Part shown: in pieces, positions 745 to 36,690 of the stretch | Layout: each line of letters starts with the position of its first letter | Position numbering within the stretch: the stretch's first letter is position 1 | Assembly: GCF_004010195.1 (NCBI RefSeq) | Contig: NC_057718.1 | Location: 60,984,073-61,025,978, forward strand | DNA: 41,906 nt | Direction: 5' to 3' | Source: Chiloscyllium plagiosum | Lineage: Eukaryota | The notes under the pieces: model-generated | Told to the model about the DNA's origin: nothing | The model's input: the letters and a program-made list of their open reading frames with translations, nothing else | The model's database searches: none | Position numbers and translations under genes: made by a program

Positions 745-1034
745 TTGATTTGGAGGTGCCAGTGTTGGACTGGGGTGTACAAAGTTAAAAACCACACAAC
801 ACCAGTCTCTAGTCCAACAGGTTTATTTGGAAGCACTAACTTTCGTAGTGCTGCTCCTTCATCAGGTGGTTGTGGATTATAAGATCATAAGTCACAGAAT
901 TTATAGTAAACGTTTGCATCATACTGTAAACCTCTACTATAAATTCTGTGTCTTATACTCCACCTGATGAAGGAGCAGCATTCCGAAAGCTAGTACTTCC
1001 AAATAAACCTGTTGGACTATAACCTGGTGTTATG
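745..1034. mobile_element. Miniature inverted PLE-derived insertion, family A, with hammerhead motifs on both strands
   Basis: 12-bp TSD taaaattacatc at 733-744 and 1035-1046. The left arm is the reverse complement of the right arm. Same family as 6994-7198 and 8627-8801. Confidence 0.85.
961..995 (+). ncRNA. Minimal type I hammerhead ribozyme motif (family A)
   Basis: cac-CTGATGA-A-GGAG(CAGCA)TTCC-GAA-AGCT-A-gta. Core intact, stems slightly decayed. Confidence 0.65.
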
Positions 1035-1466
1035 TAAAATTACATCAGTAGTTACAATTGCTACATACTGTGTCACAATAAATTAATGTTTTGTATGGAA
1101 TATTTAGTTGCATATTGTATGTTAAATTAATGTATATTGTATAATAAGTACAATTGCTTATTGTACATTAAGGTATTGTTATCTTGCAAGTTAGGTCCAG
1201 TTATTATAACACAGAGTAATAACATTTCAGTCTCACAGACTAGTGTGTGGTCAAATATGGTGAGTGATACTGTCACATGGAAATCATGTTCAGAGCATTG
1301 CTTCACATTATCTGGCGATCCGGCATGGCACCCTCTCCACTTGGTATGGCACTGTCTCAGCCTGGTGTGGTAATCTCTTGAGGAGAAAGTGAGGTCTGCA
1401 GATGCTGGAGATCAGAGATGGAAATGTGTTGCTGGAAAAGCGCAGCAGGTCAGGCAGCATCTAGGA

Positions 1467-1504
1467 GAATCGACGTTTCGGGCATTAGCCCTTCTTCAGG
1501 AATG
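1467..1504 (-). ncRNA. Minimal type I hammerhead ribozyme motif (family B)
   Basis: Minus strand reads cattc-CTGAAGA-A-GGGC(TAAT)GCCC-GAA-ACGT-C-gattc. Core and stem II perfect, stem I weak. Confidence 0.7.
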
Positions 1505-1641
1505 AGGAAAGTTGGTCCAGCAGGCTAAGATAAAAGATAGGGAGGAGGGACTTGGGGGAGGGGCGTCGGAAATGTGATAGGTGGAAAGAGGTCAAGGTGA
1601 GGGTGATAGGTCAGACGGGGGTGGGGGCGGAGAGGTCGGGA

Positions 1642-1747
1642 NNNNNNNNNNNNNNNNNNNNNNNNNNNNNNNNNNNNNNNNNNNNNNNNNNNNNNNNNNN
1701 NNNNNNNNNNNNNNNNNNNNNNNNNNNNNNNNNNNNNNNNNNNNNNN
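1642..1747. other. Assembly gap (N run)
   Basis: 106 N inside the PLE insertion. Confidence 1.
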
Positions 1748-2183
1748 GCAGGTTAGGAAGGCGGTGCTGGATTTGATGGATTTGACTGAGACAGGCTGTG
1801 GGGAGGGGAAATGAGGAAACTGGTGGAATCCGAGTTCATCCCTTGTGGTTGGAGGGTTCCTAGCCGGAAGATGAGGCGTTCTTGCGGAGCGTTTCAGGGA
1901 ACACCTCTGGGACACCCGGACCAACCAACCCAACCACCCTGTAGCTCAACATTTCAATTCCCCCTCCCACTCCACCAAGGATATGCAGGTCTTTGGACTC
2001 CTCCATCGTCAGACCACAACAAAACGACGGTTGGAGGAAGAACGCCTCATCTTCCGGCTAGGAACCCTCCAACCACAAGGGATGAACTCGGATTTCACCA
2101 GTTTCCTCATTTCCCCTCCCCCCAGCCTGTCTCAGTCAAATCCATCAAATTCAGCACCGCCTTCCTAACGTGGTAATCTCTTG

Positions 2184-2585
2184 GCCAGGCATGGTGGTCT
2201 TTCAGTGGTACATAGCAGACTTTCAGTCCAGCACAACATCAGCGTCTTCCAGTCTCGAGGTGATTCCTCGAAGTGTGCTCCCACTGTGGCTAAGCGCTTG
2301 AGGCTGTAATATTTGAACTTGCCACTTTATTTCTTTATTTTCCACTTAAGACTTAAGAAGGTTTGCAATGTGTAACTTTTAACCATACCGCATATGTTTT
2401 ATACTATTATTATTGCAATGTTTAACTTTTAACTTTGTTCTTTCTTTCTACATCTTTCTTAAGATGCTGTACCTAGGTACTTGTACCTAAGATGGCACCT
2501 TGAGTGGGGACATTATTCATGTTTCACTATACTCCTGTACTTATGTACTTGAGTACACGTGGCAATAAAATCAAAATCAAAATCA
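2184..2585 (+). mobile_element. Non-LTR retroelement 3' end (family uncertain), probably interrupted upstream by the PLE at 1381-2169
   Basis: Ends in ...gagtacacgtggcAATAAAatcaaaatcaaaatca, a poly(A) signal plus a short tandem tail typical of LINE 3' ends. Confidence 0.5.
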
Positions 2586-4099: not shown

Positions 4100-4818
4100 A
4101 ATCACTGATACCTATCTCTCCACTCCCCTCAAACATCCAACGACCACCAACCCTGCCCCCAAAATACCAAACAAACACACCTCTTTAACTCCACACAGTT
4201 GACCTCCCGTGACACCTGAATCTACCAAGCTTGCCCCCTTGATACTCAACACTTTCCCACGCCTGAAAATCTGTCCCCCACCCTGAACACATAACCAATT
4301 TCTACCCTCAACACCATCCCACTATCCCCATTGCAATCCTACCTGGACCACACTGCCACCAATACCTGACTCACCTACCAGTGACATGACACCCACCTGC
4401 TACCCCTCAGATTTAACACGTTCCCCATCCTTTCCTCACATCTACTTTGCTGCCACCCTATACTACTGACCTAATTGCCACTCTACCTTCTCACTCCCAA
4501 TCAACACATTGTCCAATCACCCAACTGGCACCCTATCCCCTCACCTATATAACTGATACATTATCTCCACGCCTAACCTTCACTCTACCCTTTAAGAACC
4601 TACTATATACTATCTTCTTTTCCACATGACATGCTATCTGTTTCCACCCTCCCCGTCACAACCACCTTACACCCTCACCCACCCACCTCGCACCTGACTT
4701 AATTAACCACCTATCATTCTACTTCTTCCCCCAACAGCTTTACCCACTTGCCCTCCTAGACCTCAGTTTCCTACCACTCTAAATCCCCTCACCTATGCAC
4801 CTGACCACACCTCCCCTT
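4100..4818. repeat. C/A-rich low-complexity tract
   Basis: Strong C excess and G depletion on the plus strand with recurring ccacc/cacct/ctacc motifs. No coding signal. Confidence 0.6.
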
Positions 4819-6200: not shown

Positions 6201-6993
6201 CCTGCCCAAGCTCCTGGACAGGCTTCGGAGTCTGCCTTGATTTACTGTGGCCTTGACCTGAAGGCCATCTCACTTTACTTGACTGAGGTCTACTGACAAA
6301 CATGACAAGATTCCTGGCCTTGTGTCTCATTGAACGGCATGGCAGTTTAGCAACACTGTACATCTGGTATCTCTTGTGAAGGGTTAAGGGAAAAAAGGCA
6401 AGGCAGTGGTGCTTGTAGCATCGAAGCAAGCTCTAGGTGAGTGACTGGTAAGAGAGCAAGTGAACAAGCCAGAGCTGCAGTCTGGTCCAGTCTCTGATGT
6501 AAGTGCATGTCCCTTAACACAACATGTCCTTGCAATAGTATTACAATGATAGTTGTTGCCAATGTGCTCTGAGGTGCAGCATTGATGTCCAGAAGGATAC
6601 TGGAACGGGATCAGTGATGTGTCATGATGGCTCTTGGAAGCTGGCAAACATTGAATGCCAATTACATGGATGTGGCAATTGTACAGCTGGTGCCCATATT
6701 GGATGCCCTGAGATGTAGATGTCCTGAGATGTAGGTGCTCTGTTTCCAGCAATGATGGTCTTTTGGAGCAAGTGATGAGCTGAAGTAGCAAATACATATT
6801 GAGAATTCCCAGCATCTAGCTTAGTCATGGTTGGATAAGAAGCTGCATATTAATGAGGTGAGATGAGCAGTTAATAAGCAATAATCTTATGATTCACTAT
6901 GTCTTAATAGTCAACTCACTGCTGCCAAGTGAGAATCTCGCCTTGATGTCTAGAACTTAGTTAGAAGTTGCAGCAAACTGCTCTGGCATTGAG

Positions 6994-7198
6994 TTAAAAA
7001 TCACACAATGCCAGGTTATAGTCCAACAGGTTTATTTGGAAGCACTAATTTCGGAGTGCGGCTCCTTCATCAGGTGGTGATGAAGGAGCAGCGCTCCGAA
7101 AGCTAGTGCTTCCAGACAAACCTATTGGACTATAACCTGGTGTTGTGTGATTTTTAACTGTGTACACCCCAGTCCAACACCCGCATCTCCAAGGCATG
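6994..7198. mobile_element. Miniature inverted PLE-derived insertion, family A
   Basis: 12-bp TSD tctggcattgag at 6982-6993 and 7199-7210. Inverted arms meet near 7075, with two partly damaged hammerhead motifs. Confidence 0.9.
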
Positions 7199-7257
7199 TC
7201 TGGCATTGAGATAGATCTTATTGGACTTCTCACATAATTCTAGCATGATTCTCACCA

Positions 7258-7697
7258 CAGCCACAAAAAGACATGATCCACTCTCGCTAGTATCCTTACA
7301 TATAGATAAGGAAGGACACTACTTTGACTGGGACAACACATCCATCCTCGGACAAGCCAAACAGACACACACGAGAATTCCTAGAAGCATGGCATTCCGC
7401 CCAGACCTCTACAAACAAACACATTGATTTGGATCCCATCTATCACCCTCTAAGAAAAAGAACTGGAAATGGCATCACCAACAATGGAAATGACACCAAC
7501 ACAGGAAGTAACATCACCAACCCAAGAAAAGCTAAACACATAAATAGGAAGTGGGCCATAACACTAGTGCTTCACTGGAGGCTCACTGATGATGTTACCT
7601 AGTATGGTGACCAAAGTCTGAAAATGAACCTTCCAGATCAGCTAGCTAACTTACATCCAGAACTTCAACCTGAGCCATAATTCTTCTCCAAACTCAC
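7258..7697 (+). mobile_element. PLE 3' fragment (family D, Penelope/Poseidon-like GIY-YIG C-terminus plus terminal repeat)
   Basis: ATKRHDPLSLVSLHIDKEGHYFDWDNTSILGQAKQ / REFLEAWHS...NKHIDLDPIYHPLRKR, related to 27744-28163. Decayed hammerhead at 7583-7621: tca-CTGATGA-T-GTTACC(TAGTAT)GGTGAC-CAAA-GTC-tga. Confidence 0.85.
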
Positions 7698-7744
7698 ATA
7701 TTGTTCAGGCCACTATAGAATCTCATCCACTGTATCTGAATCTG

Positions 7745-7830: not shown

Positions 7831-8626
7831 TATAATTTTGTGTGAAGGAAATTGTGTCTCACAAACCTGATTGAGTTTTTTGAGGAAGTAACATAAACAT
7901 TGATGAGAGCAGATGTTGTTTATTTGGATTTTAGTAAAGCATTTGATAAGGTTCCACATGGTAAACCAATTCAAAAGTTTGATTACATGGGATTCAGGAT
8001 AAGGGATTGCCCATTGGATACAAAATTGGCTTTATGGGAGGAGATGGAGGGTGATGCTGAAGATTTGTTTTTTGGATTGGAGACCCATGACCAGCCATGT
8101 TCCACAGGGATTGATACTGGTTTCAATTTTTTTTGTCAATTACGTAAATGAGTTGGATGAGAATATAGGAGGCATGGTTCACAAGTTTACAGATGACACC
8201 AAGATTGGGTATTTTGTGGACAGTGATGAAGATTATTTAAGATTACAAAGAGATCTTGATCGAATTGGTCAATGGGCTGAGGAGTGGCAGGTGGAGTTTA
8301 TTTGGATAAATGTGAGGTACTGCATTTTGGTAAAACAGACAAGGGCAAGACATATACAATCAATGGTAGGGTCCTGGGTACTGCTGTAGAACACAGAGAC
8401 CTAGGGGTTCAGTTACATAATTCTTTGAAATTTGTCTCACAGGTAGAGAGGCTGGCAAAGAAAGTGTTTACCAGGCTTGCCTTTATTGCTCAGACCTTGG
8501 AGCATAAAAATTGGGATATCATGTTGAGGTTGTACACGATGTGGTGAGGCCTCTTCTAGAGTAGTGTGTGCAGTTCTGGTTGCCCTGATATAGAAAGGAT
8601 ATTATTAAACTTGTTCAGTAAAGATT

Positions 8627-8801
8627 TAAAAATCACACAACACCAGGTTATAGTCCAACAGGTTTAATTGGAAGCACACTAGCTTTCGGAGCGACGCTCC
8701 TTCATCAGGTGATCACCTTCCAATTAAACTTGTTGGACTATAACCTGGTGCTGTGTGATTTTTAACTTTGTACACCCCAGTCCAACACCGGCATCTCCGA
8801 A
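8627..8801. mobile_element. Miniature inverted PLE-derived insertion, family A, nested in CR1
   Basis: 12-bp TSD tcagtaaagatt at 8615-8626 and 8802-8813, with inverted arms. Confidence 0.92.
8677..8711 (-). ncRNA. Minimal type I hammerhead ribozyme motif (family A), intact
   Basis: Minus strand reads cac-CTGATGA-A-GGAGC(GTC)GCTCC-GAA-AGCT-A-gtg. Confidence 0.75.
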
Positions 8802-9435
8802 TCAGTAAAGATTGACCAGGATGCTTCTGGGATTGGAAGGTTTGAGTTATAAAAAGAGATTGGATAGGTTCTGATTTTTTTCACTAGATCATGGGACGTT
8901 GAGGGGTGACCTATTCAAGTTTATAAGATCATGAGGGGCATAGATAAGGTGACCAGCAAAGATATTTTCCCTAGGGTGAAGAAGTTCAAAACCAGAGGGC
9001 ATATTTTTAAGGTGAGAGAAGGAAAATTTAAAAAGGGCATGAGGGGCAACTTTTTTTACACAGAGTGCGGTTATTTTGTGGAATGAACTGCAAGAAGAAG
9101 TGGTGGATGCAGATATAGTTACAATGTTTAAAAGACATTTGGATAAGTATATCAATGGCAATGGTTTGGAGAGATATAGCCTAAATGCAGACAGTTTGGA
9201 CTAGTTTGGGAACATGGTCTGCATGGATTGGTTGGACCGAAGGATCTGTTTGTATGCTATATGACTCTATGTTGCCTGCAGGAGAGCCATTAGATTATGT
9301 CAAGGTGGTTGCATGCCTTCTGTCAAAGCTGGTCATTTTATTTGGGTATGTAGCCGCATTTGGTGCCAAGCAGATCATTCAAGATCCTGAAAAAATTTGA
9401 TGCTGTAGAGGCGCAAAGTTCCAGAGTAACTTTAT

Positions 9436-11793: not shown

Positions 11794-11940
11794 ATTGATT
11801 AGTGTGGTGCTGGAAAAGCACAGCAGGTCAGGCAGAATCCAAAGAGCAGCCTGCTCCTCAGATGCTGCCTGACCTGCTGTGCTTTTCCAGTGCCACACTC
11901 TCGACTCTGATCTCCAGCATCAGCAGTCCTCACTTTCTCC
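11794..11940. mobile_element. Miniature inverted PLE-derived insertion, family B-like, hammerhead part absent
   Basis: 7-bp TSD taggtca at 11787-11793 and 11941-11947. Hairpin arms ~11802-11848 and ~11851-11898. Ends in cagtcctcactttctcc like the other family B copies. Confidence 0.85.
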
Positions 11941-12199
11941 TAGGTCAGATGATTAGGTTGATTATAAAGAATTAAGAGTATTAAGAAAAGACTAATCAGG
12001 AGAAATACATTGAAGTAGGATTGTAAAACAGATGTTAAGAGTTTTCACAGTATTTAAAAAGGAAAAGAGTAAGTGAAGTGAGCATTGGTTCTCTGGAAAG
12101 TGAGAATGCAAAATTAATATCTATATGAAGGAAACGATGGATGAAATGCACAAATATTTTATTTCTGGCACCATAATAATTTAACAAAAAGTATTCCAG

Positions 12200-12370
12200 A
12201 TAAAAACCTAAAGAACTGTAAATCAGAAACAGAAGTTACCAGAAAATCTCAGCAGGTGTGGCAGCATTTGTGAAGAAAAATCAAAGTTAATGCTTCAGGT
12301 CTGGTAACCCTTCCTCGGTTGGGGCTGAGGGGTTCTGAGGAAGGGTCACCAGGCACAAGATATTAATTGC
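12200..12370. mobile_element. Decayed inverted PLE terminal repeat, family E
   Basis: Similar to the termini of 20443-23248. Contains an inverted pair, ggtaacccttcctcgg and CTGAGGAAGGGTCACC, which are decayed hammerhead starts. Confidence 0.65.
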
Positions 12371-13580: not shown

Positions 13581-13809
13581 GGTTAAATGAGATTAGTAAG
13601 ATAGGAGAGGTGATAGAAATGGTGCATTGGCTTACATTTTTAAGTGCATATCACTCAACTTCTCAGTTTGGATTTTCAAGCCTAGTACTGCACATCACAC
13701 CTCACACCAACTTACTTTCCAACTACACCCAATCACTCTCTGTCTGGGCATGTCCTCACATCCCCTTCCATCTATCCACCAATAGCTGAATGACCTATCG
13801 TGTATCCTG

Positions 13810-14172: not shown

Positions 14173-14227
14173 TTAATCAAGACTGTTGGGCAGCCTATCC
14201 AATTACTGCCATTTGTTTTCATGTATA

Positions 14228-14542
14228 TTAGATTACTTAGATTACTTACAGTGTGGAAACAGGCCCTTCGGCCCAACAAGTCTACACCGACCCGCCGAAG
14301 CGCAACCCACCCATACCCCTACATTTACCCCCTTTAACCTAACACTATGGGCAATTTAGCATGGCCAATTCACCTAACCCGCACATCTTTGTGACTGTGG
14401 GAGGAAACCGGAGCACCCGGAGGAAACCCACGCAGACACGGGGAGAATGTGCAAACTCCACACAGTCAGTCGCCTGAGTCGGGAATTGAACCCGGGTCTC
14501 TGGCGCTGTGAGGCAGCAGTGCTAACCACTGTGCCACCGTGC
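14228..14542 (-). mobile_element. HE1-type tRNA-derived V-SINE, near full length
   Basis: Minus strand has A box TGGCACAGTGG, B box GGTTCAATTCC and V-domain tgtgtggagtttgcacattctccccgtgtctgcgtgggtttcctccgggtgctccggtttcctccc. The CR1-like tail ends in repeated gtaatctaa. Confidence 0.95.
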
Positions 14543-14699
14543 AGTACTAGGCTTGAAAATCCAAACTGAGAAGTTGAGTGATTTTCAGTCAATGACATCT
14601 TATAACTGTGGAAGCCAGTCAGATCCACAAAACAAGCACCTGCACATTTTCACTGGTGTCATTGCAGACTGAGTTGACATAATTACCACACTGGTACAT

Positions 14700-18051: not shown

Positions 18052-18118
18052 TTCTTCATTTGTGATCTTGCCTCGACAAGTGAGGTCCAGGATCTTGTGT
18101 AGGCAACACTGTGGAAAA

Positions 18119-18745
18119 GTCATAGAGTCATAGAGATGTACAGCAGGGAAACAGACCCTTTGGTCCAACCCATCCATGCCGACCAGATATCCCAACCTGA
18201 TCTAGTCCCACCTGCCAGCACCCAGCCCATATCCCTCCAAACCCTGCCTATTCATATACCCATCCAAATGCCTCTTAAATGTTGCAATTGAACCAGCCTC
18301 CATCACTTCCTCTGGCAGCTCATTCCATACACGTATCACCCCTCTGTGTGAAAAGGTTGCCCCTCAGGTCTCTTTTATATCTTTCCTCTCTCACCTTAAA
18401 CCTATGCCCTCTAGTTCTGGACTCCCTGACCCCAGGGAAAAAACTTTGTCTATTTACCTTATCCATGCTCCTCATAATTTTTAAAACTCTATAAGATCAC
18501 TCCTCAGCCTCCGACGCTCCAGGGAAAACAGCTCCAGCCTGTTCAGCCTCTCCCTATAGCTCAAATCCTCAAACCTTGGCAACATTCCTGTAAATCTTTT
18601 CTGAACCCTTTCAAGTTTCACAACATCTTTCCAATAGGAAGGAGACCAGACTTGCACGCAATATTCCAACAGTGACCTAACCAATGTCATGTACAACCGC
18701 AACATGACCTCCCAACTCCTGTACTCAAAATTCTGACCAATAAAA
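18119..18745 (-). mobile_element. CR1 (HER1-like) LINE 3' fragment
   Basis: FEYRSWEVMLRLYMTLVRSLLEYCVQVWSP...LERVQKRFTGMLP...LERRRLRSDLIE, plus a (ctctatga)n tail. Confidence 0.95.
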
Positions 18746-20127
18746 GAGTCCTGTTTGTTGAAACCTTGCTGTTCACTTCTATGTCTCGCTGGCATAGATA
18801 TCAGTTGGCGCTGCAGGAGATGTACAGAGTCGCAGTTTCACTGCCAGGTTGGTGGCGTTAGATGCCCATACCATGAGTCATTGAAAAACTAAAGTACTTT
18901 GCTGATTCTTCTATAGATGTCAATCTCTACATTTACCTCCCTAAAGTTACTGCTTCCTAGATAGGAGAAGAGGTCGACATTGCTGATGTTGTTATCTGAT
19001 GATATTGGGTGGGCCTTGTCACCATCCAGTCATAATTACTTTGGTTGGTTCACAGCTCTTGGGCAGGAAAATGTTAGCACTGATACTCTCAAGATTGGTG
19101 GTGATTTCTTGGAGCAGGTGTGTTTTTCCATCCAGTGAGACAATGCCTGCAAATTCAGGCTATCAACCAGTGATGTTGCCACCCGTTGCCAAAGTTTGTC
19201 CCCACCATTACCATCCTATACTGAAATCAATTAGTAAAAGAATGAGGAATGGCGAGAAAATGCAATCATGTGATACTCCTGAGATGCCATTGAAGGAGTC
19301 CATGGTGCCCTTGCTGGTCTTGGCACACCCGCTGGAGTACCAGTTATAAGGATTACAGACATTCAGAAATTTTGTTTGGAAATGACCTACTTTTGATTGC
19401 ATGTTACTTTTTACAGATGGAAAGTTTGAAGGGTTATCAAGCTGATCAGATTATACATGGCGGTTTATCTCATTGATCTCACCTGAAAACAACACGAGTA
19501 CCCTAAATATTGATGACAGTGAAGGTCTATCCTTACGTGTGTTTATTGTTTATTTTAGGCTTTAATAAATTCACTCACTCACTGTTTTCTTTGCTGCTTT
19601 AAAGTTCTTACTAAAACACCAAAAAAAAGTAGGCAAATGGTTACTCTTACTATTGGTCTGAAGTGTGCACTATCCTGAAGATCTGGGTACCATGCTAATG
19701 CCTGGAAAGGCACCCACTGCTAATTGGTTTCTAAGGAGTTAGCCCTCATCACCTAGGTAACCAAGGCCTACCTTCAGCTGCAAGAAATCATGGCCATTTT
19801 TTTTAAAAAATGTAGAAAAAGTAACATGTACTGATCTGACTGTATAAGGGGTCAGTTTTGAAGAAATGAGGTTCAAGACAAATATCGAAGATGTATCAGG
19901 TCATTTTATTCAGGCAAGAACACTTCCCTTTCCAGACGAGTGCCTTGACATGTTCTGTGTTGAATGTTTTTTTTAACTAGATCACAGGAGTATCAAGACA
20001 TAGTCATAGTGCCAAATATTTGACATCATTACCACAGTGGAAGGTTAAGGAATACAAAGTTAATCCTCCTCCACCTCCACAAACCATCTGCAAAACACTT
20101 ACAAAACGACAACATAAAAAAAAAACT

Positions 20128-20295: not shown

Positions 20296-20442
20296 TATTT
20301 CTCTTCGAATATGCATCTCCAAGCTACCAGTTATCACTTACTAAACTGTTAAATGAATATAACTTCCCCTCTTCTCCACTTGCACAGATTGTCAGAGTAC
20401 ACTAATGTAAATTCCACTCTCAGGTAACAACTATGTCTTAAT

Positions 20443-23248
20443 CAAAAACAGAAGTTGCTGGAAAAGCTCAGTAGGTTTGGTAGCAGAGAAATCACAGTTA
20501 AGGTTTCCAGTCCAGTGACCTTTCTCAGAACTGATAGTAACGAGGAAAGTGTCAATTTATATGTAGAAGATAGGTTGGGGGACGGGGTAGGGAGTAAACA
20601 ATAGGTAAGAATAGAGCCCAAAGAGACAGAAGAACAGTTGGACAGACAAAGGAGTTGATAACAATCCAGCTGGGAGGGTGAATAACTGTTAATGGAGATT
20701 GCTGGTGGCTAACAATAGGTAGTGTGTAATGGCAGATTATGTGATAACAAGACCTGATGTGTATGGTAGGGGGCTAGGACATGGGGGAGTTCAGGCCCTA
20801 AAATTATTGAACTCAAAATTGAGTCCGGAGGGCTGCAGGGTCCCCGAACAGAAGTGGTTCTTCCAGTTTGTACTGAGCTTCATTGGAGCACTGTAACAAG
20901 CCTTAGACAATGATGTTGGCGAGGGAACAGGGTGGTGTGTTAAAGTGGCAGGCAACTGGAAACGCAGGGTCTTTTATAGCAGGCAGATCGTAGATATTCT
21001 GCAAAGTGTTCACCCAGTCTACACTTCATTTCCCCAATGTAGCAGAGACCACATTGTGAGCAGCGAATGCAGTAGACTAGATTGTAGGAAGTGCAGGTAA
21101 ATTGCTGCTTCACCTGGAAGGTATGTTTGGGCCCTCAGATGTTGAGGAAGGAGGATGTAATTGGGCAGATGTTAAACCTTTGATGCTTGCAGTGCAAGGT
21201 GCCATGGGGCTGTGCGGGGGGGAGGTGGGGTTCAGTGTTGGGACTGAAGGAATAGAAGACCACGGTGTCCCGGAGGGAATGGTCCCTGCAGAAAGCAGGC
21301 AAGAGAGGATAGATGAATATTATTCCTGGTGGTGGCATCTCACTGGAGGTGGCAGAAATAGCAGCTGATGGTCTTCTGGAAGTGGACGCTGGTGCAGCAC
21401 CAATGATATCATCGATATATCAGAGGAAGATTTGCAGGTAGGGTCCAGAATAGGACTGGAACAAGGAATGTTCCATGTCCCCCATGAAGAGACTAACTGG
21501 GGCCCATGTGAATACTCATGGCCACCCGTCTGACTTGAAGAAAATGAAAGGAAGCTTTTGAGGGTGAGGACATGCTCAGTCAAGTGGAGGAGGGTGGTAG
21601 TGGTGGGTGGGGAGAGTTCAGGCCTTCGCTCCAGGAAGAAGCAGAGAACCCTGAGACTATCCTGGTGGCGGATGGGTATGAAAGGGATTGCATGTCCATG
21701 GTAAAGAGGAGGTGCTTGGAGCCTCCAAATTGGAAATTCCGAAACTGGTATAAAATGTCAGAGGAGTTATATAGACAGGGACTGGAGCAGGGGAAAAGGG
21801 ACTGAGTCAAGGTAGGAAGGGATGAGTTCTGTGGGGCAGGAGCAGGCAGAAACAATGCATTTTGCCCAGGCTGTCCTGTTTGTGGCTTTTTGGAAGGAGG
21901 TAGAAGCGAGCTGTGTGGGACTGGGTGACCATAGGCTTGGTGGCAGTGGAAGGGGAAATCATCAAAAGAAATGAGATCAGTGACTCTCATTGATACATGT
22001 GCCATGGTAGAGTCATGTTCCAGGGGGAGATAGGAGGAGGTAACTGTGGATTCCCCAACACCATTGTCTACAGGGTCCACAACCAGTTCTGACCCATCTC
22101 CCACATTTCCATCCTCACCCCCTCACTTCCCTCCCACAACAGCAATGGGGTTCCCCTTGTCCTTACCTACCATCCCACCAGCATCCTCAACCAGAAGATC
22201 ATCAGTTGTCATTTCCGCCATGTCCAGCAAGATATTACCACAGATACGTATTCCTCTCCCCTCCCTTGTCCGCCTTCCGCAGAGATCATTCCCTCCGGCA
22301 CACGCTGGTCCACTCTTTTTTCACTCCCAACATTCCTCCACAGCCCCTCAGCATCTTCCACTGCAACTACCCATTTACTTCCTCCCTCCACAATATCCGA
22401 GGGCCCAAGCATACCTTCCAGGTGAAGCAACGCTTTACCTGCTCTTCACTCAATCTAGAGGAGAAAGGGAAGAACTGTTTGTTGAAGAAGGGCTTATGCC
22501 CGAAACGTCGATTCTCCTGTTCCCTGGATGCTGCCTGACCTGCTGCGCTTTTCCAGCAACACATTTTCAGCCCTTCACTCAATCGAGTTGACTGCATTCA
22601 CTGCTCACAATGTGGTCTCGTCAACATTAGGGAAATGAAGCATAGACTGGGTGACCACTGTTCAGAACATTTACATTCTGCCTGCAAAAAAGACACTGAG
22701 CTTCCAGTTGCCTGCCATTTAACACACCGCACTTTTCCTTGGCAAACATCTCTGTCTCAGGCTTGCTGCAGTGTTCCAGTGACGCTCAGCGCAAGCTGGA
22801 ATAACGACACCTCATTTTCCAATTGGAGACCCTGCAGCCCTCCGGACTCAATATCAAGTTCAATAATTTTAGGGCCTGATCTCCCCCATATCCTAGCCCC
22901 CTACCACGCACACCAGGCTTTGTTATCATATCATCCACCGTTACACACTACCTATTGTCAGCCATTAACAGTCTCCATTAAAAGTTATTCACCCTCCCAG
23001 CCAGATCATTATTGATTCTTTTGTCTGACCAACTGTTCTTCTCTTTCACTGGGCTCTATCCCTACCTGTCGTTTACTCCCTAACTGCTCCTCCACCCTAT
23101 CTTCTGCATATAAGCCAACATTTTTCTAGCTAGACCCAAACTTTAGTTTTGATTTCTCTTCACAGATGCTGACAGACTTGCTGGGCTTTTCCATCAACTT
23201 TATTTTTGTTTCTGATTTACAACATCCGCAGTTTTTTTGGTTTTTAGT
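20443..23248. mobile_element. Large decayed PLE (family E, Neptune-like) with long inverted arms
   Basis: 11-bp TSD tatgtcttaat at 20432-20442 and 23249-23259. The minus arm has RT motifs LLFTMDMQSL, VAMSIHMGPS and YIDD (21408-21419). The plus arm has GIY-YIG-like CIHCSQCGLVNIREMKHRLGDHCSEH...PVACH. Positions ~20443-21340 are an inverted, diverged copy of ~22200-23210. Confidence 0.9.
22459..22572 (+). mobile_element. Miniature family B insertion nested in the family E PLE
   Basis: TSD cttcactcaatc(t/g)ag at 22444-22458 and 22573-22587. Carries tTGAAGA-A-GGGC(TTAT)GCCC-GAAACGTC, with core C3 lost. Confidence 0.88.
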
Positions 23249-23769
23249 TATGTCTTAATGACTATTTGGGGAAATATATTTTTAATTCCAAAGTTCTGGC
23301 TTCAAGCATCAATATTGACTAAATTCTGTGGCATAACTTGTGGTTAGACATTTCCAATACATTGTTTAGCAGCAGAGCCAAATTTTCACTGCTTTTTAAA
23401 TATTTGTTTACTACTTAGAATTGAAGCTTTGCCAAAGGATCCAACTCAAGGGAGTAGGAATGGTCAGTACTTAGTTTTGAGTATAAAGGCATCAATGGAG
23501 AAACAACAGCACCTGAAGACGCCTCGCCTAAAGCACCATTCCTGCTAATTGAGTCAGCAGCTGGCATTCCTTCAAATGATACAGACAGCTTATGAGGTAG
23601 GGGAACATGTATACTTGTTAACTTGTATTGACAGTAGCTCTCTGAAGGTAATTTCTGTGGCACTGGGGGTTACGGAGTTAGAATGGACTTGAGGAAAATC
23701 AGGATATTGTGGTGTGCAACCCTCCCTGGCTCCATAGTGAACATTTTTAATTTTATTTTAAAATTATAC

Positions 23770-24077
23770 ATTAGATTCCCTACAGTGTGGAAACAGGCCA
23801 TTTGGCCCAACCAGTCCACACCAACTGTCTGAAGTGTAACCCCCCCCAGACCCATTTCCCTCTGACTAATGCACCTAACACTATGGGCAATTTAGCATGG
23901 CCAATTCACCTGACCTGCACAACTTTGGATTGTGGGAGGAAACCAGAGCACCCGGAGGAAACCCACACAGATGGCGGGGGGAGCACGCAAACTCCACACT
24001 GACAGTCAACTGAGACTGGAATCGAACCTGGGTCCCTGGCGCTGTGAGGCAGCAGTGCTAGCCACTGAGCCACCATC
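23770..24077 (-). mobile_element. HE1-type V-SINE
   Basis: A box TGGCTCAGTGG, B box GGTTCGATTCC, V-domain and CR1-like tail. Homologous to 14228-14542. Confidence 0.93.
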
Positions 24078-27000: not shown

Positions 27001-27215
27001 AACTGATGTATTTTTTACGTCACTGAAGGCAGTGGCGTTCTCCACTGTCCTTTGTAATCAGTTCTTGTTAAAATTACAAATGGCACTTGCAAAAGAACTC
27101 ATTTATGAATGATCTTGCTAATTAAAGAATATAATAAGACCTAAAGTTTGTGCAAAGATTTGTAGCTCGGGTACTCGTTGCTGTGGTTCTGTTCGCCGAG
27201 CTGGAAGTTTTTGTT

Positions 27216-27255
27216 GCAAACGTTTCGTCCCCTGGCTAGGCAACATCATCAGTGC
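27216..27255 (-). ncRNA. Minimal type I hammerhead ribozyme motif (family C), intact
   Basis: Minus strand reads gca-CTGATGA-T-GTTGCCT(AGCC)AGGGGAC-GAA-ACGT-T-tgc. Confidence 0.7.
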
Positions 27256-27419
27256 TTGGGAGCCTCCTGCGAAGCGCTTCTTTGATGTTTCCTCCGGTGT
27301 TTATAGTGGTCTGTCCCTGCCGCTTCTGGTTGTCAGTTTCAGCTGTCCGCTCTAGTGGTTGGTATATTGGGTCCAGGTCGAATGGAGTTTGTGGATGGAT
27401 GCCATACCTCTAGAAATTC

Positions 27420-28163
27420 CACAAACCAAGCTGCATCAGGACACTATTCAAAAGGGCCACAACACACTGCAGTACACCAGAACTGCAAAAAGAAGAAGAG
27501 GAACACCTATACAAGGTATTCGCCAAAAACGGATACCCGCGCAACTTCATCAACAGATGCCTAAGAGAAAGACCACAGAACGAGGACATACCACAACCAA
27601 AAGGACTAGCCACATTACCATACATCAGGAGCATCTCGGAACTGACAGCCAGACTACTGCGACCCCTAGGACACATAACGGCACACAAACCAACAGCCAC
27701 GCTCAGACAACAACTCACCAGAACGAAGGACACGATACCCAACATGAGCAAGACGAATGTAATGTACAAAATACCATGCAAGGACTGCACAAAACACTAT
27801 ATAGGACAAACAGGAAGACAGCTAACAATCCACATACATGAACATCAACTAGCCACGAAACGACACGACCAACTATCCTTAGTAGCCACACACGCAGACA
27901 ACAAGCAACATGAATTCAACTGGGACAACACTACTATCATAGGACAAGCCAGACAGAGAACAGCCAGGGAATTCCTAGAGGCATGGCATTCATCCACAAA
28001 CTCCATCAACAAACACATAGACCTGGACCCAATATACCAACCACTACAGCGGACAGCTGAAACTGACAACCGGAAGCGGCAGGGACAGACCACCATAAAC
28101 ACTGAAGGAAACATCAAAGAAGCGCTTCGCAGCAGGCTCCCAAGCACTGATGATGTCGCCTAG
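27420..28163 (+). CDS. 5'-truncated PLE ORF: RT C-terminal region plus GIY-YIG endonuclease
   Basis: Stop-free frame of 248 codons including the stop: HKPSCIRTLFKRATTHCSTPE...KNGYP...LPYI...NVMYKIPCKDCTKHYIGQTGRQL..HIHEH...REFLEAWHS...STDDVA*. Confidence 0.9.
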   Translation, partial: HKPSCIRTLFKRATTHCSTPELQKEEEEHLYKVFAKNGYPRNFINRCLRERPQNEDIPQPKGLATLPYIRSISELTARLLRPLGHITAHKPTATLRQQLTRTKDTIPNMSKTNVMYKIPCKDCTKHYIGQTGRQLTIHIHEHQLATKRHDQLSLVATHADNKQHEFNWDNTTIIGQARQRTAREFLEAWHSSTNSINKHIDLDPIYQPLQRTAETDNRKRQGQTTINTEGNIKEALRSRLPSTDDVA

Positions 28164-28176
28164 CCAAGGGACGAAA
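28144..28176 (+). ncRNA. Hammerhead motif (family C), cut off by the gap
   Basis: gca-CTGATGA-T-GTCGCCTAGCCAAGGGAC-GAAA then N. Overlaps the ORF stop codon. Confidence 0.6.
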
Positions 28177-28410
28177 NNNNNNNNNNNNNNNNNNNNNNNN
28201 NNNNNNNNNNNNNNNNNNNNNNNNNNNNNNNNNNNNNNNNNNNNNNNNNNNNNNNNNNNNNNNNNNNNNNNNNNNNNNNNNNNNNNNNNNNNNNNNNNNN
28301 NNNNNNNNNNNNNNNNNNNNNNNNNNNNNNNNNNNNNNNNNNNNNNNNNNNNNNNNNNNNNNNNNNNNNNNNNNNNNNNNNNNNNNNNNNNNNNNNNNNN
28401 NNNNNNNNNN
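28177..28410. other. Assembly gap (N run)
   Basis: 234 N. Confidence 1.
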
Positions 28411-28736
28411 ACGGCTAACAATCCGCATACATGAACATCAACTAGCCACGAAACGACACGACCAGCTATCCTTAGTAGCCACACACGCAGACAACAAGCA
28501 ACATGAATTCGACTGGGACAACACTACTATCATAGGGCAAGCCAGACAGAGAACAGCCAGGGAATTCCTAGAGGCATGGCATTCATCCACAAACTCCATC
28601 AACAAACACATCGACCTGGACCCAATATACCAACCACTAGAGCGGACAGCTGAAACTGACAACCGGAAGCGGCAGGGACAGACCACTATAAACACCGGAG
28701 GAAACATCAAAGAAGCGCTTCGCAGGAGGCTCCCAA

Positions 28737-28776
28737 GCACTGATGATGTTGCCTAGCTAGGGGATGAAACATTTGC
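28737..28776 (+). ncRNA. Hammerhead motif (family C), CpG-decayed
   Basis: gca-CTGATGA-T-GTTGCCTAGCTAGGGGAT-GAA-ACAT-T-tgc. The ACGT palindrome has become ACAT. Confidence 0.5.
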
Positions 28777-29374
28777 AACAAAAACTTCCAGCTCGGCGAA
28801 CAGAACCACAGCATAATAAGACCTAACTTTCTCAAATGTGCTGTCAATGAGCATTGCCATTAGACATCTCTAAAGAAGCAATATGTTGAAAATAACAATG
28901 ATTGCATGTTTACTGATCTTTTACAGTGCAGATAATTGACTATTTAGCTACAGAATGGGGTTTTAAAAACTTTGTCATATACTTGAATATGTTGAGCAAA
29001 TAGCATCAGATTTTTCCATTAAAAATTAAAAGGGTGGAACTTTTATTAGTCCCTAAAATCCATGGACTGTCTTTCCAGTCATTAAGTGGTCAATGTGAAG
29101 GCACCTGCTATACATGGGGTTGAGGCACCCACATAACCAGAATGTTCCTCAATGTTGCCATGTGCCTCATGTTGCTGAGAGAAACTACATCGGGGGATGG
29201 GGTATAAATCACCCCACTTATGCCCTACTACGAAGAGACAGAAAAAGAAACATTTTAAAACTTCACCTGGCAGTGCAAGCACACTCACTCATGGAGGGTA
29301 ACATACTTTGAGTGAATGTATGAGCTTTCAGTCTAATGCCAAGACACTGATAGGGTTTTGTCAAAGTATTTCAA

Positions 29375-29612
29375 TTTTTTTACACAGAGTGTGATTCGTG
29401 TGTAAAATAAACTTCTAGAGGAAGTGGTAGATGTGGGTACAATTATAATTTTTAAAAAATACTTACATTAGTGCATGAATAAGAAATGTTTTGAGGGGAA
29501 TGGGCCAAGAGCAGGCAGGTGGGACTAGTTTAGTTTGGGATTATGGTTGGCATGGACTGGTTGGACGGAAGGGTCTGTTTTCATGCTGTATGACTCTTAT
29601 AACCTATGACTC
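29375..29612 (+). mobile_element. CR1 LINE 3' end
   Basis: ttttttacacagagtgtg...gaggaagtggtagatg...gggtctgttttcatgctgtatgactct. Homologous to 9050-9270. Confidence 0.85.
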
Positions 29613-32197: not shown

Positions 32198-32234
32198 ATT
32201 CCTGAAGAAGGGCTTATGCCCGAAACGTCGATTC
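32198..32234 (+). ncRNA. Minimal type I hammerhead ribozyme motif (family B), intact core
   Basis: attc-CTGAAGA-A-GGGC(TTAT)GCCC-GAA-ACGT-C-gattc. Confidence 0.72.
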
Positions 32235-32327
32235 TCCTGCTCCTCGGATGCTGCCTGGCCTGCTGTATTTTTCCAGCACCACATTTTTCAACTCTGGTCT
32301 CCAGCATCTGCAGTCCTCACTTTCTCC
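32198..32327 (+). mobile_element. Miniature family B insertion (130 bp), non-inverted
   Basis: 13-bp TSD tatttatgtctgt at 32185-32197 and 32328-32340. Confidence 0.93.
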
Positions 32328-33149
32328 TATTTATGTCTGTGTCCATGCTTTACAGATTTTATTATAGTTAAAAAAGAACTATTGGAAATTAATTTAATAA
32401 ATACACCAAATGATAAAGAGAGTGTACATTATGATAACAGATAATTAACAGTATGGACGTATTGCCCAAAAAATTGCCCCCAAAATGTTGGAGAATAATA
32501 CTGCAGAGTGTAATGTCTCTTTAAGTGACCAGGCAGCAACGAGGACTTTGTTTAATTGATACAGTTAGGGTCTTTGAACACAGCAATTGGTTATATAAAT
32601 ATTCCAGACAAAATCATTTGCTGTGGAAGTAGATGGGGCCACAACAGTGCATTTTTGTGAACACCTTATCAAATACCATAAGGGAAATGGAAAGCAATAT
32701 AGAGGCAACTGGAAATCCCATTGTAGCAAAGAGAAGGACGTCATTAAGATGAACACCCTGGAAGAGAGATGGAAATTAATTAAACACTCAAGTAAAAGCA
32801 AAATATTGCTCGGCTTTAAATATGATTTTAAAAAAAGCAGGAAGCATTAGAAAAACTCAGCAGATTTTGCAGGGAGTGAACAGAGAGAGATAGAGACAGA
32901 GTTATGCATACAATAAGACTGTTCATGGGGATTTGATGTAAAGTTGCCATTGATGATGCTCCAATTTTACTCCATGTAGCTTTCAACTGAAGTTCCATCC
33001 TTCATGTTTCCAATCACCCATAACAGCTATCTCTGAGACGTACAAAATTTCTCAGATAGCAGTTTTCACTGCAACCTGAAATCCACACTCAGTGCCATGC
33101 ACAGCCATACACACACACATGACCTCACATTCAAGCTACAACTTAGTTC

Positions 33150-33270
33150 ATCTTATTGGACTCAAACTGTTAACTCTTTTTGTCACTCCCCAAATATTGC
33201 CAGACTTGCTAACGTTAAATGGCATTTCTTACTTTTATTTCAGATTTCCAGCATCCAGAATTTTTTACTT
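33150..33270 (+). mobile_element. Old PLE-terminus-like fragment
   Basis: gttaactct...gccagacttgct...ttttatttcagatttccagcatc resembles 23140-23248. Similar remnants lie at 32830-32905 (minus) and 36225-36345 (plus). Confidence 0.5.
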
Positions 33271-34694
33271 CTGTATCATGCAAATAGCCCTAAGAAAACA
33301 ACATTTCAATAAAATAAATCTAAAATTCCTGTGTTATATATTGAAAACCAAATGTGGTTAAATTTACATGAATATTTGTTGAGTTTCTCATTGTGAAGGA
33401 ACCCATGTTTCTAAACCTCATAGCTCCACAGTATCATATTTATTAACAAGCTGGACAACAGCCAAGTCATTGTGGAGCCTGCTGGTAAGCTAATGAAGTC
33501 ACAGTAGACTATTCCTTGTTGCTAACATTACCATTTGCTATGCTAATGATGTCATATTGGGTCCCTTTTTGAATTTGCTATGAGGTTATACCCTGCCTGA
33601 GTTGGTAGGACATTGATGTAAGTAAATGACAACAATTTTAATATGTTATGCTAACTGTTACTAAAATCTGGATTTATTGAAATTGAAACTATTCCGATCA
33701 CTTAATAATTATTCCATTTCCTCCACCATTAGGTTAGGGCATTGTGACAAAACTGTTAGGCATCAGGGACACATTACTGAGGTGATGGTATTCAAATGCA
33801 CTGAAGCAATACCGATTTTATTCAACAGCTTTAGTTCCAAAGCTAAGGTGGAAAAACAGCAAGCTAGCCGGCATTGACCTGGCTGCAGCCAGGGGTGAAG
33901 ACATAACTCAAACTGATTAAAGCAAGCTTTCTTTTGCAGACTGATATTTATAGCATAATATGAACATGGCTGGCATTGCCATCCATTCTTGAGAAGTTAA
34001 ATATAAATTGTACTGAAGCCAGAAATGTGTAAATTTGAGAATAGTGTCTGGCAAACCTGAAAAATTCCAGGAATATTAATTGCTCATTTTAGTCCTTTAG
34101 TGGGAAATAATATGGCTGCAATGATTAATTAGTTAACTCATAACTTTTTAACTGGTTTCAACTGCCCATTGGTCTTAATAAAAACAATAGTTTCTTGTCA
34201 ACTTCAATAATGAAATACATTCTACACCTATGAAAAACTTAGGAGAACCATCTTTCAAACTCTGAGGTCATTTCAACACACTGGCATCGTTAATTTCTAA
34301 TTTGAGTATTAAATTCATAGATGGTCATTTTTAACTTGAGAAGACAGTGCAAAATGGATGAAATAGAATGAGTCATCAATTTGCTTTGCCCTGTTTTCAC
34401 TCATTTTGTTGCATGTTTTGGCATATATATTAATACCCACTACAATCCTACTATTGTGAGATTTTAATTGTGTTCTGGCAGTTCTGGCTCCCAGTTCATG
34501 ACTCAGAACTAAACGTACTAATGTCCTTGCAGTATTCCAGTGGTTACTACAAAGCATCTCAAATGCTGAAGCAGGATCTGCTTTCATTATATAGCTACAT
34601 TCATTGGAGTGGAATTACAGTGACTATTTTAAAATATTATTTGTTACATTTCAGAAGTTATAAATTTACAATTCTTTTCTCTGGGTGGGATGCC

Positions 34695-34760
34695 GCACAG
34701 AGGGTCGGTCTGGACTTGATGGGCTGAATGGCCTGCTTCCACACTGTAGGAATTCTATGG
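34695..34760 (+). mobile_element. HE1/CR1-type 3' tail fragment
   Basis: ggacttgatgggctgaatggcctgcttccacactgtaggaattcta matches the tail of the SINE at 23770-23830. Confidence 0.8.
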
Positions 34761-36480
34761 TACTTTAATTTTTCCCTCCTTTTTAATCTTTTTAATAATT
34801 CTTTGTTTATGTATATATAGGGCAATTATATGCCTTTACTTTAAGTTTGATATTAACTTTGACTTTTCTAGTTAACCATGGTTAGTAAGATCGTCCCTCA
34901 GAATTTTTCTTATATTGCCATGTATTTATTCTACATTTTCCAACATGTTGGAAAAGTAGTCAGCTTTCTGGCTGGGAAACCAGGACATCTTGCCTGCCGG
35001 TTTGAAGGTGTGCCTCCATTCGCCAATCTGGGGCCAACTGAAGAAAGAATGAGGTGGCAAGTGGGTGGTCACTGAAGGAAACCTCCCTGCCCTTGCCTCC
35101 AACTACTCTGATCCCACCTCTCCCCCTAACCCTGTGTGTATGAGACCTGAAAATAAAGCACTAGCCTTCTTTCTGTTTCCGTACCAAAAGCCTGGTACTC
35201 CAACCATTGTAATGTAGAACCCAGAAGCCTCTCATTAGCTGGCGGCTTCAGGCAGTATCAGGCAGAGCTTGTGATATGCTGAGAAACTTGCTGAGAAGCT
35301 TTGTTGCTGGATCTATGGAGATCCAATTCCTCACATTCAATGCATATAAGTCCAATAGTCACTTCCCTATTCCTAAAAATCAAATATTGTAATCACGTTC
35401 ACTCTCCAGGAACATTCACTGAATAGTAATCTAGAACTATGATGTCTTTACCTTTACGTAATCAAGAGTAAGAACCATGCTTCATTGTTATTTATGTCTC
35501 CATGGTTTACTTTGGCACCTCACTGATAACCTAGCTGAGATTATCTCACTCATTGTAAACCATAGACTGGAGGTGTAGTTTTCTTAATTTGTGAGCCTCA
35601 CTATCATACATTGTGGTAAATTAGCCTGTCTAAAGATAGGTGTAATTAAAAAGCTAGTGCAAGGTTTGCCACAACCGAGTTGGCAAACTCTGGAAGGTCT
35701 CTCGTTGCAACTATCAAAAGCATTATCACTTCTATAAGCTATTCCTTTTAATAGTCTCTAAATAGCAGTGCAAATCATATGCATTATATTGATTTTAAAG
35801 AAAATTGGGGTTTAGCAAAGACAGGAGCTGATTAAACATGGCACTTGGCTAACAGACTGGGTGGGGCTAGGTTATTGAGCAATTTAGTGCTTTGTCAACG
35901 GAACCTGAATCAATGTGGTTTAAAACTGAAAAGTCTAAAGGTTAACAACTACCAGAAGTTTCAACAACCCAGTTATCAGCTTTTATTATAGCAATGCAAT
36001 GCACTGCATAGCACAAAGATTAAAGGTCACCCTGTGACTTTAATAACAAGGTAAAATGTACAATATAACATTGAAGTTCACCAACGAGAGAAATGGAACA
36101 ACCTTGATATGCAGGGCTGAGTTTAGTTACATTCTTGTTCTGAATATAAAGGTTCTTCCACTCTTTAGAATATCTGTTAAAGACCTTGAACAGTATTAGG
36201 TTAGTTCGCCAGGTGTTCAATTGAAAGGTTATTGAATCCAAAACATTAACTCTTTCTCTCTCCATCGATCCTGCTGAGCTTCTTCAGCACTTTTAGTTTT
36301 TATTTCAGATTTCTAGCATTCACAGTACTTTATTTTTATTTCAAACCTGTTGGATGAAATCGAATAAGTTGCTAGCTGGTGAAGTGAAATAAAAGATTTT
36401 AAATGTCTCCAGGGAGAGAACTTACTTTGAAAATGTCAGTACACATCGAAGGGAATTGAGTTGGTTTCTACATGTGGTAG

Positions 36481-36690
36481 GAGAAAGTGAGGACTGCAGA
36501 TGCTGGAGATCAGAGCTGAAAATGTGTTGCTAGAAAAGCGCAGCAGGTCAGGCAGCATCCAAGGAACAGGAGAATCGACGTTTCGGGCATAAGCTCTTCC
36601 TGAAGAAGGGCTTATTTCCCGAAACGTCGATTCTCCTGTTCCTTGGATGCTGCCTGACCTGCTGCGCTTTTCCAGCAACACATTTTCAGC
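36481..36690. mobile_element. Miniature inverted family B insertion (near-perfect hairpin)
   Basis: 15-bp TSD ttctacatgtggtag at 36466-36480 and 36691-36705. Arms ~36515-36594 and ~36610-36690. Plus-strand hammerhead core CTGAAGA-A-GGG(CTTATTT)CCC-GAAACGTC at 36600-36628. Confidence 0.95.

Follow-up and report, generated by a model that had tools for sequence, protein, structure and literature searches.

Penelope-like elements (PLEs) of metazoans carry minimal type I hammerhead ribozymes (min-HHRs) in their terminal repeats, the pseudo-long terminal repeats (pLTRs). These min-HHRs cut poorly even as dimers (PMC4209133), and dimer cleavage is treated in a review (PMC6765202). Published hammerhead counts are about 2,000 in Schistosoma, 4,000 in the coelacanth and 9,000 in Xenopus (PMC4209133), and 126,247 type I hammerheads in the axolotl (PMC7229834). 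The pLTRs of rotifer elements contain TATA and Inr-like motifs (PMC8557442, PMC3846280, PMC2377424). A preprint by Li et al. 2026 reports retrozymes in its one cartilaginous fish (10.64898/2026.07.22.740005), and a single mention in the whale shark paper records Penelope as present. Here, we describe the hammerhead motifs in a 41,906-nucleotide (nt) stretch of the genome of the shark Chiloscyllium plagiosum (GCF_004010195.1, contig NC_057718.1, positions 60,984,073 to 61,025,978, forward strand), hereafter the window. We consider it about 80% probable that they are min-HHR sequences in the pLTRs of at least six Penelope-like lineages, whose insertions are for the most part short, truncated at the 5′ end, and frequently head-to-head, and in which the ribozyme likely comes first in the element RNA, is predicted to cut only as a dimer, and is likely inert in most copies.

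Motif positions are numbered from the core nucleotide C3, which is set to 0. In a family-independent scan, the CUGANGA sites of the window were scored for the second box, stems, and palindrome. Eight of the 44 sites reached a structure score of at least 6, while 100 dinucleotide shuffles of the window gave a mean of 0.04 and a maximum of one such site. Together with a homology search for decayed copies, the scan yields 16 hammerhead-shaped motifs (five of family A, four B, three C, one D, and three E), besides one further B arm without the first box. By their sequences the motifs are real minimal hammerheads, which are predicted to cleave only as dimers. An earlier note, made from the letters of this DNA alone, had spoken of more than a dozen intact or decayed motifs, which the count bears out. 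The strings that it quoted for families A (8677–8711 minus, 961–995), B (1467–1504 minus, 32198–32234, 36600–36628), C (27216–27255 minus), and D (7583–7621) are present as given, and the family E copies that it placed at about 12339 and 20500 minus were located at 12335–12364 plus, 12289–12318 minus, and 20500–20528 minus. Its five families do share one layout, but they are not unrelated, as C and D, and B and E, have sequence in common. Two of its example copies contain the motif in imperfect form: stem I of the copy at 961–995 is mismatched, with gua instead of gug, and stem II of the copy at 36600 has one surplus base. A strict descriptor, composed of the core, the G10.1 pair, and stems I and II, with the palindrome as the final criterion, passes six of the 16 motifs, and four of these keep the palindrome. 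The fully intact motifs are 8708 (−), 1499 (−), 32202 (+), and 27252 (−). Rfam 15 has no hammerhead among its 10 window matches at E up to 10, which are hairpin-driven miRNA matches only, and none of the four tandem repeats of the window is an array with a hammerhead per unit. Target duplications of 11–15 base pairs (bp) flank eight of the 12 units, which are the following:

746–1035: family A head-to-head insertion; motifs 837–865 (−), palindrome broken, and 964–992 (+), stem I mismatched; TATAAA upstream of both; 12-bp target duplication.
1381–2172 (−): family B 3′ end with internal inversion and N gap; intact motif 1472–1499 (−); endonuclease C-terminus at 1878–2165 (+), 98% identical to the frame of locus L185, and at 1786–1884 (−); 14-bp target duplication.
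6992–7192: family A head-to-head pair; motifs 7046–7073 (−) and 7077–7105 (+), C3 replaced at the junction; 12-bp target duplication.
7259–7700 (+), right end approximate: family D, Poseidon-type sister of C; decayed endonuclease end and decayed motif 7586–7618 (+).
8618–8804: family A pair; intact motif 8680–8708 (−), opposite arm beginning 3′ of the ribozyme; 12-bp target duplication.
11795–11942: family B head-to-head pair, truncated below the ribozyme and without a motif; source of the best Rfam "miRNA" hairpin matches.
12217–12370: decayed family E pair; motifs 12289–12318 (−) and 12335–12364 (+).
20440–23245: long inverted family E insertion; decayed reverse transcriptase (RT), linker, and GIY-YIG frames on both arms; decayed motif 20500–20528 (−), TATAAAT 29 nt ahead of the predicted RNA start (+1); 11-bp target duplication.
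22479–22574 (+): short family B copy inside the E element; motif 22482–22509 (+), C3 lost at the 5′ junction; 12-bp target duplication.
27179–28813: inverted and tandem insertion of family C (Poseidon-type); intact motif 27219–27252 (−); 249-aa GIY-YIG frame 27414–28160 (+); further motifs 28147–28176 (+), cut by an N gap, and 28740–28773 (+), palindrome broken.
32198–32329 (+): solo family B copy, beginning 4–5 nt ahead of intact motif 32202–32229 (+); 13-bp target duplication.
36478–36691: family B head-to-head pair; motif 36600–36628 (+), extra stem II base; minus arm without first box; 15-bp target duplication.

Each of the families A to E is tied to a Penelope-like endonuclease or RT-endonuclease frame, in line with the earlier assignment of the motifs to the known minimal type I hammerheads of PLE terminal repeats, whose layout (PMC4209133) they match. 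On sequence grounds, the motifs are members of the known min-HHR class in at least six Penelope-like lineages. Families A, B, and E appear to be Neptune-type and C and D Poseidon-type pLTRs, with "Neptune-type" used loosely. The architecture was probably inherited, since all five families are Penelope-like pLTRs. The proteins of A, B, and C are mutually only 28–30% identical, which makes these families old lineages; the endonuclease ends of C and D are 71% identical, and B and E have part of the tail in common. RT and, at the C-terminus, the GIY-YIG endonuclease with CCHH are both present in C (L043) and A (L175–L182). Locus L043 has a 658-aa RT and GIY-YIG frame, a hammerhead at each end, and an adjoining inverted copy, and its N-terminal frame begins inside the upstream hammerhead; L255 likewise has a hammerhead in the pLTR at both ends. 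Family A frames of up to 480 aa contain RT, a CX4CxxC linker, and GIY-YIG, followed by the 3′ untranslated region (UTR) and motif, and the family A ATG is at +121. In family B, the linker and GIY-YIG are followed by a short UTR and the motif, and the RT part was not recovered. The frames of B, D, and F (a family outside the window) comprise the endonuclease part only, and those of E are decayed, with the motif behind Neptune-type frames at 20557–21394. A family F endonuclease end lies upstream of the motif at locus L246; in all six families (A to F), GIY-YIG frames have the hammerhead downstream of them. The zinc-finger linker (CX2-5CxxC before the endonuclease) is present in A and B and not in C, and its absence places C on the Penelope/Poseidon side (PMC8557442). 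Pfam gave only RVT_1, just below the cut-off, and GIY-YIG was called from motifs read by eye against PMC8557442; on eight window frames Pfam had no GIY-YIG match, and its two weak RT matches belong to other LINEs. The hallmarks of endonuclease-positive PLEs are present, namely the pLTR, one-sided tail, adjacent inverted copy, and target duplication. The family C protein is 87–89% identical to Chiloscyllium punctatum proteins. After the bamboo-shark matches, the listed relatives of this protein (L043:2417–4390, −) are mostly tapeworm and fluke proteins (about 40–55% identity), ahead of other vertebrates; this resemblance possibly reflects host–parasite transfer or just database bias. In locus L193 (6050–6829), the family B linker is amplified as a tandem repeat of about 10 copies.

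The ribozyme core appears to be under selection. A clustering of 574 of the 1,295 mismatch-tolerant anchors produced 25 clusters of at least three: 13 are hammerhead families, 11 of them with intact boxes, and the other 12 are unrelated repeats without proper stems. The largest clusters of families A, B, C, D, and E all retain an intact core, CUGANGA / GAAA / UH. The unpaired base between 9 and 10.1 is A in families A, B, E, and F and U in C and D, and the G10.1–C11.1 pair is present. Stem III is replaced by a palindrome, in the majority ACGU in B to F and AGCU in A, which is kept in 66 of 102 strict matches; the rest are mostly ACAU or AUGU, which fits CpG decay. Stem I differs by family (cac/gug, auuc/gaau, aguu/aacu, agcu/agcu, gca/ugc, cca/ugg) and is always paired. 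All eight natural copies of six families that we compared informally have three to four of four pairs in stem I and four to seven pairs in stem II, as expected from the earlier remark that the stems differ yet stay paired. For a test of the core, copies were chosen by upstream and tail sequence only, and base-adjusted changes were counted at non-CpG positions; the B2 pattern returned no copies. Core changes in random-sample copies number 5, with 21.1 expected (B1 0 vs 2.6, B3 3 vs 8.5, A 2 vs 10.0), which is the excess of core over flank conservation whose lack had been set beforehand as refuting the ribozyme reading. With protein-picked loci added, private core changes are 7 against 20.5 expected (B1, B3, A, C). 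Changes in stems and loops are in deficit in A, and not clearly so in B or C. A previous core-versus-tail test was discarded as biased, as its reference panel had been picked for a perfect core.

In family F, a sister of E with 1,263 exact genome matches (loci L235–L246), U3–A8 replaces C3–G8, and a perfect 4-bp stem I begins at the predicted +1. A hand count of the first 100 matches listed in a degenerate search gave 72 U3–A8, 19 C3–G8, 7 C3–A8, and 2 U3–G8. The switch is known from Schistosoma (PMC4209133), and is what selection on the catalytic fold would predict, though it is a single event. A U3–A8 variant within family A (124 matches) was dropped as a second compensatory event, since CpG decay in a CUGACGA subfamily, together with a single transition, may account for it. 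Selection on the ribozyme core is supported by the deficit of core changes relative to the flanks, the covarying stems, and the compensatory pair of F, which together provide natural evidence for a selected catalytic core, including a vertebrate U3–A8 variant. It most likely acts in many source elements rather than on inserted copies. Further small hammerhead subfamilies beyond A to F, with a shorter stem II or other D-like forms, occur at L065:4343, L182, L071, and L137.

Copies begin a little upstream of the ribozyme rather than at the cut site, and about 30 nt ahead of this point lies a TATA or TATA-like box. Copies were located by their tails and compared, by alignment, with panels of long natural copies; an initial panel-based count of 5′ ends was diluted by hairpin references and was replaced by the redone count given here. 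At −12 to −1 lie the 5′ ends of 33 of the 56 A copies reaching that far (3.6 expected) and 87 of the 128 B copies (10.1 expected), while at the cut site there are 2 in A (2.5 expected) and 7 among B copies of at least 88% identity (4.8 expected); the B cut-site copies are partly E/F-type or internally deleted. Ends inside the motif at 0 to +11 number 12 of 86 in A and 57 of 253 in B, and those at −24 to −13 are rare (3 of 86 and 2 of 253). In 12 loci selected for an intact motif, most of the 17 family F copies start at the A at −4, which opens the 4-bp stem I, or beside it. The upstream flanks of solo peak copies are unrelated, with similarity in 0 of 13 A and 2 of 42 B. An intron ending at stem I was rejected, given these flanks and because no AG stands immediately upstream of the A or B core. 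Among A copies that retain the upstream motif of their family, 27 of 36 have a TATAWA box starting 28–32 nt ahead of the predicted +1, as do one of five E copies and two of six F copies (the rest being mostly truncated), and a weaker (T/C)TTAT box stands at −31 to −33 in 32 of 62 B copies. Since copies start upstream of the ribozyme, the templates were probably uncut. The 3′ ends are bimodal (A about +83 and +122; B +80–87 and +125; C +73 and +105–107), matching the two RT starts of the green anole element (PMC11167929). Among nine A loci picked by their N-terminal frame, the 5′ repeat is joined in four, starting at −11, −100, −365, and +35, and six of 11 C loci extend past the TATA box at −53; as the joined 5′ repeats often extend upstream, partial tandems are common among full-length copies.

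RNA was examined in one poly(A) single-cell run, of which about 2% of reads were aligned to families A and B. Family A has 3,008 reads, which over the motif run about tenfold in one direction (1,002 vs 101), the sense direction if the library follows the usual rule. Reads with loose poly(A) ends stop at +57 (320 reads) and +60 (358 reads) of the repeat (L260:776–898), where the genome is not A-rich, and 59 of 65 A copies have AATAAA (35) or ATTAAA (24) upstream of these positions and a GU-rich tract after them. Thus, uncut polyadenylated RNA crosses the family A ribozyme and ends ahead of the RT start sites. Family B has 2,493 reads on both strands, deepest over the motif and tail, with loose ends at −4 and at both 3′ ends and no pile-up of starts or ends. 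A poly(A) RNA library of this kind cannot reveal cleavage. Two side observations concern these reads and tails: host transcripts may receive poly(A) sites from dispersed family A copies, and 111 RNA reads begin their match at +89 in family B (L185:5483–5520). These tail-only pieces suggest that the tail is insertable apart from the rest of the repeat.

The motifs are abundant in the whole 3.56-Gb genome. Four narrow patterns give at least 88,628 exact matches (A 16,661; one B subfamily group 65,147; C 4,957; E plus F 1,863, with a mismatched 3–8 pair in 9 of the first 100 matches listed), and reversed-pattern controls give 0, 0, 1, and 0. A genome sample of 150 spread 10-kb stretches (1,454,485 bases) contains 105 motifs by the generic strict descriptor, with none in reversed sequence; 76 are palindrome-intact, or about 50 per Mb. 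This extrapolates to 186,000 intact motifs (bootstrap 142,000–235,000), and because exact patterns are 1.5 times as frequent in the sample as in the genome on average (54 vs 35.5), about 120,000 is the safer estimate. The counts suggest 1–2 × 10^5 intact motifs. The window, with six A and seven B arms in 42 kb, is near the sample average of about 10 (361 in 1.45 Mb). The very large ribozyme load anticipated by the earlier note therefore exists as a load of motifs, whose catalytic activity is a prediction. It is near the axolotl count, the largest located in print, at several-fold higher density in a genome about one-eighth the size (that of the axolotl is 28.21 Gb), yet was missed by Rfam.

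About 60% of A and B copies stand in head-to-head pairs. Of the 88 A copies, 59 have a head-to-head partner within 3 kb, and of the 273 B copies, 155 do, as compared with 11 and 43 tail-to-tail partners, and the pair junctions cluster at the ribozyme. A same-strand neighbor within 5 kb was seen for 21 A and 122 B copies, when a hand estimate from density gives 18 and 137. Only one of the two arms bears the long tail in 27 of 29 A pairs and in 56 of 78 B pairs, where 14.5 and 39 would be expected, and target duplications of at least 8 nt flank 13 of the 29 A pairs and 38 of the 78 B pairs, compared with 0 and 1 in controls. In a transcript that crosses a head-to-head pair, the ribozyme would anneal to its own antisense copy. 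As head-to-head pairs prevail and tandem pairs are not enriched, most copies are likely silent. A dimer can be drawn with a 4-bp stem III; dimers need a matching palindrome and stem I, and most cross-family pairs are poor.

We propose that the ribozyme forms the first 35–40 bases of the element RNA, with RNA polymerase II starting at or just before stem I, at the A at −4 in B, E, and F and at about −8 in A. The element RT would start internally at one of two sites 55–95 nt downstream of the ribozyme, as has been seen in vitro with the anole element. When copying the 5′ repeat, it would run off the uncut RNA end, leaving 90–130-bp stubs. Priming of both nicked target strands would produce head-to-head pairs. 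The ribozyme is predicted to cut only as a slow, rare, or protein-assisted dimer in source transcripts. We hypothesize that the core is kept in source elements because both repeats of a single transcript are occasionally cut and ligation follows, giving a template that rebuilds a promoter-bearing partial tandem.

Several observations speak against parts of this model. When all B copies are pooled there is a slight cut-site excess (17 vs 8.8, p 0.008), a minority of the copies in the 5′ peak come from subfamilies missing in the reference panel, and the ends of 11 C repeats joined to open reading frames (ORFs) are scattered from −5 to −421. The B box is weak and TATA-like, and +1 is deduced from motifs and copy ends. 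The RNA run is linked to this genome by the shared species label only, its reads may be host read-through, and the family B reads contain no poly(A) end. The hammerhead-shaped dimer is never the minimum-energy cofold of eight natural copies, and, except in C, is no stabler than two folded monomers (A −17.7 vs 2 × −8.8 kcal/mol); this agrees with the low activity (PMC4209133) and protein dependence (PMC11167929) reported for such ribozymes.

A more specific version for family A is tentative, and we regard it as possible but not probable. The A repeat would be a miniature long terminal repeat (TATA/start, hammerhead, poly(A) signal/tail, ATG) with the hammerhead as its R region, and only a doubly cut, ligated circle would yield long, promoter-bearing copies. 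The mRNA would start after the TATA box and end before the RT start sites of the 3′ repeat, so that plain reverse transcription gives dead 90–130-bp stubs only; the double cut would strip the cap and poly(A), and ligation would set the 5′ tail behind the 3′ ribozyme. A step of double cutting, ligation, and a longer-than-unit cDNA circle was proposed by Cervera and De la Pena (PMC4209133). What would be new is the reason for its usefulness: the TATA box is outside the transcript, and the A mRNA is without the 3′ tail. Our low estimate reflects that the same outcome could be reached without cleavage, by template jumps or by transcription that reads through the poly(A) site. If true, the circle would explain core selection although almost all copies stem from uncut RNA, and would give a direct test of what PLE hammerheads are for.

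Other explanations account for part of the data. The motif could be kept for a non-catalytic role, as a promoter element or a protein-binding or RNA-pairing site, with cleavage vestigial or the ribozyme hitch-hiking. The apparently uncut templates and the position of the motif, where downstream promoter elements would be, suit this idea, as do anole ribozyme mutants, which left in vitro insertion unaffected (PMC11167929), and the spread of Naiad and most Chlamys elements without canonical hammerheads (PMC8557442). We nevertheless hold it unlikely, since the C3–G8 to U3–A8 double change, albeit one data point, and the varying yet paired stems point to selection on an RNA fold and not on a DNA sequence. 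About equally doubtful is that the 5′ ends pile up through RT stalling or template switching at the ribozyme fold instead of marking the RNA start. Many ends do fall inside the motif and head-to-head junctions cluster there; RT, however, encounters stem I by its 3′ strand, and the ends nevertheless lie beyond the whole motif, hardly any fall at −24 to −13, and a TATA or TATA-like box stands about 30 nt upstream in four lineages of different sequence.

Less likely still is a large pool of active ribozymes, with the motifs cleaving host transcripts, in cis over kilobases or in trans, and so shaping the transcriptome. Such a pool would draw on the density of palindrome-intact motifs, the same-strand neighbors of 122 of 273 B copies, mixed dimers of B subfamilies, and the presence of both strands in poly(A) RNA. 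But those neighbors occur at density level, the head-to-head copies would fold back on their antisense arm, neither RNA alignment reports a site where many reads begin or end, and published min-HHRs are poor cutters even as dimers (PMC4209133). Least probable of all is that the short copies form a non-autonomous family of their own, SINE-like or a retrozyme, replicating through circles: they far outnumber the long ones and have their own target duplications, but run colinear with the 3′ ends of elements that code for protein and belong to the same subfamily, a stub is without the upstream TATA box, and the window has no motif-bearing tandem arrays.

The window has further features apart from the hammerheads. 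Fragments of another LINE, presumably CR1/L2-like by their look, lie at 8003–9271 (weak RVT_1 match at 8003–8386), 18118–18837, 29372–29611, 39773–40371, and 41623–41906. A SINE-like repeat of about 300 bp is found at 14237–14582, 23760–24074, and 34682–34772, and is associated with a 44-bp local inversion (13650–13693 / 14539–14582). A near-exact 207-bp tandem duplication (99%) at 41159–41572 is possibly an assembly artefact.

A literature search that missed most subscription papers found no report on shark hammerheads, and for PLE hammerheads no start site at stem I or poly(A) signal just after the cut site. The searched supplementary files of PMC4209133 contain no shark term, and some supplementary lists may hold shark motifs. 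The hammerhead class is already known, and the shark families are new members of it. They share with the metazoan min-HHRs the absence of stem III, the palindrome at 15.1–16.1, the extra base between 9 and 10.1, and G10.1–C11.1, as well as the occurrence of several sequence families per genome, mostly as single truncated copies, and of opposite-strand pairs (PMC4209133). They differ in number, which there goes up to about 9,000, and in stem II, which in A and B is only 4–5 bp. Animal retrozymes resemble the shark motifs in very high type I counts, dimer-dependent cutting in vertebrates, and the PLE link (PMC7229834; 10.64898/2026.07.22.740005). Retrozymes are tandem repeats with canonical motifs, whereas the shark copies represent element ends that are dispersed or inverted; the window contains no tandem array with one hammerhead per unit, and same-strand pairs are not enriched in the sample.

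The insertions have the 5′ truncation, partial tandems, adjacent inverted copy, target duplications, and 30–40-bp tail on one end that are described for endonuclease-positive PLEs, among which Drosophila Penelope differs by its TATA-less internal promoter and an intron before the ribozyme (PMC8557442, PMC3846280, PMC2377424). For Neptune-type elements, in which ribozyme function is still open (PMC8557442), the mapped layout of start site, ribozyme, poly(A) site, and RT start sites can be tested. Poseidon PAc of the green anole (PMC11167929) shares with the shark elements a frame beginning inside the hammerhead (here in family C), two RT start sites defining the tail, extension of both strands, and uncut RNA as the main template. 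In family A, the ATG is instead at the tail end (+121). The evidence for PAc is in vitro and from the Poseidon clade, whereas that from the shark is genomic and mostly from Neptune-type families.

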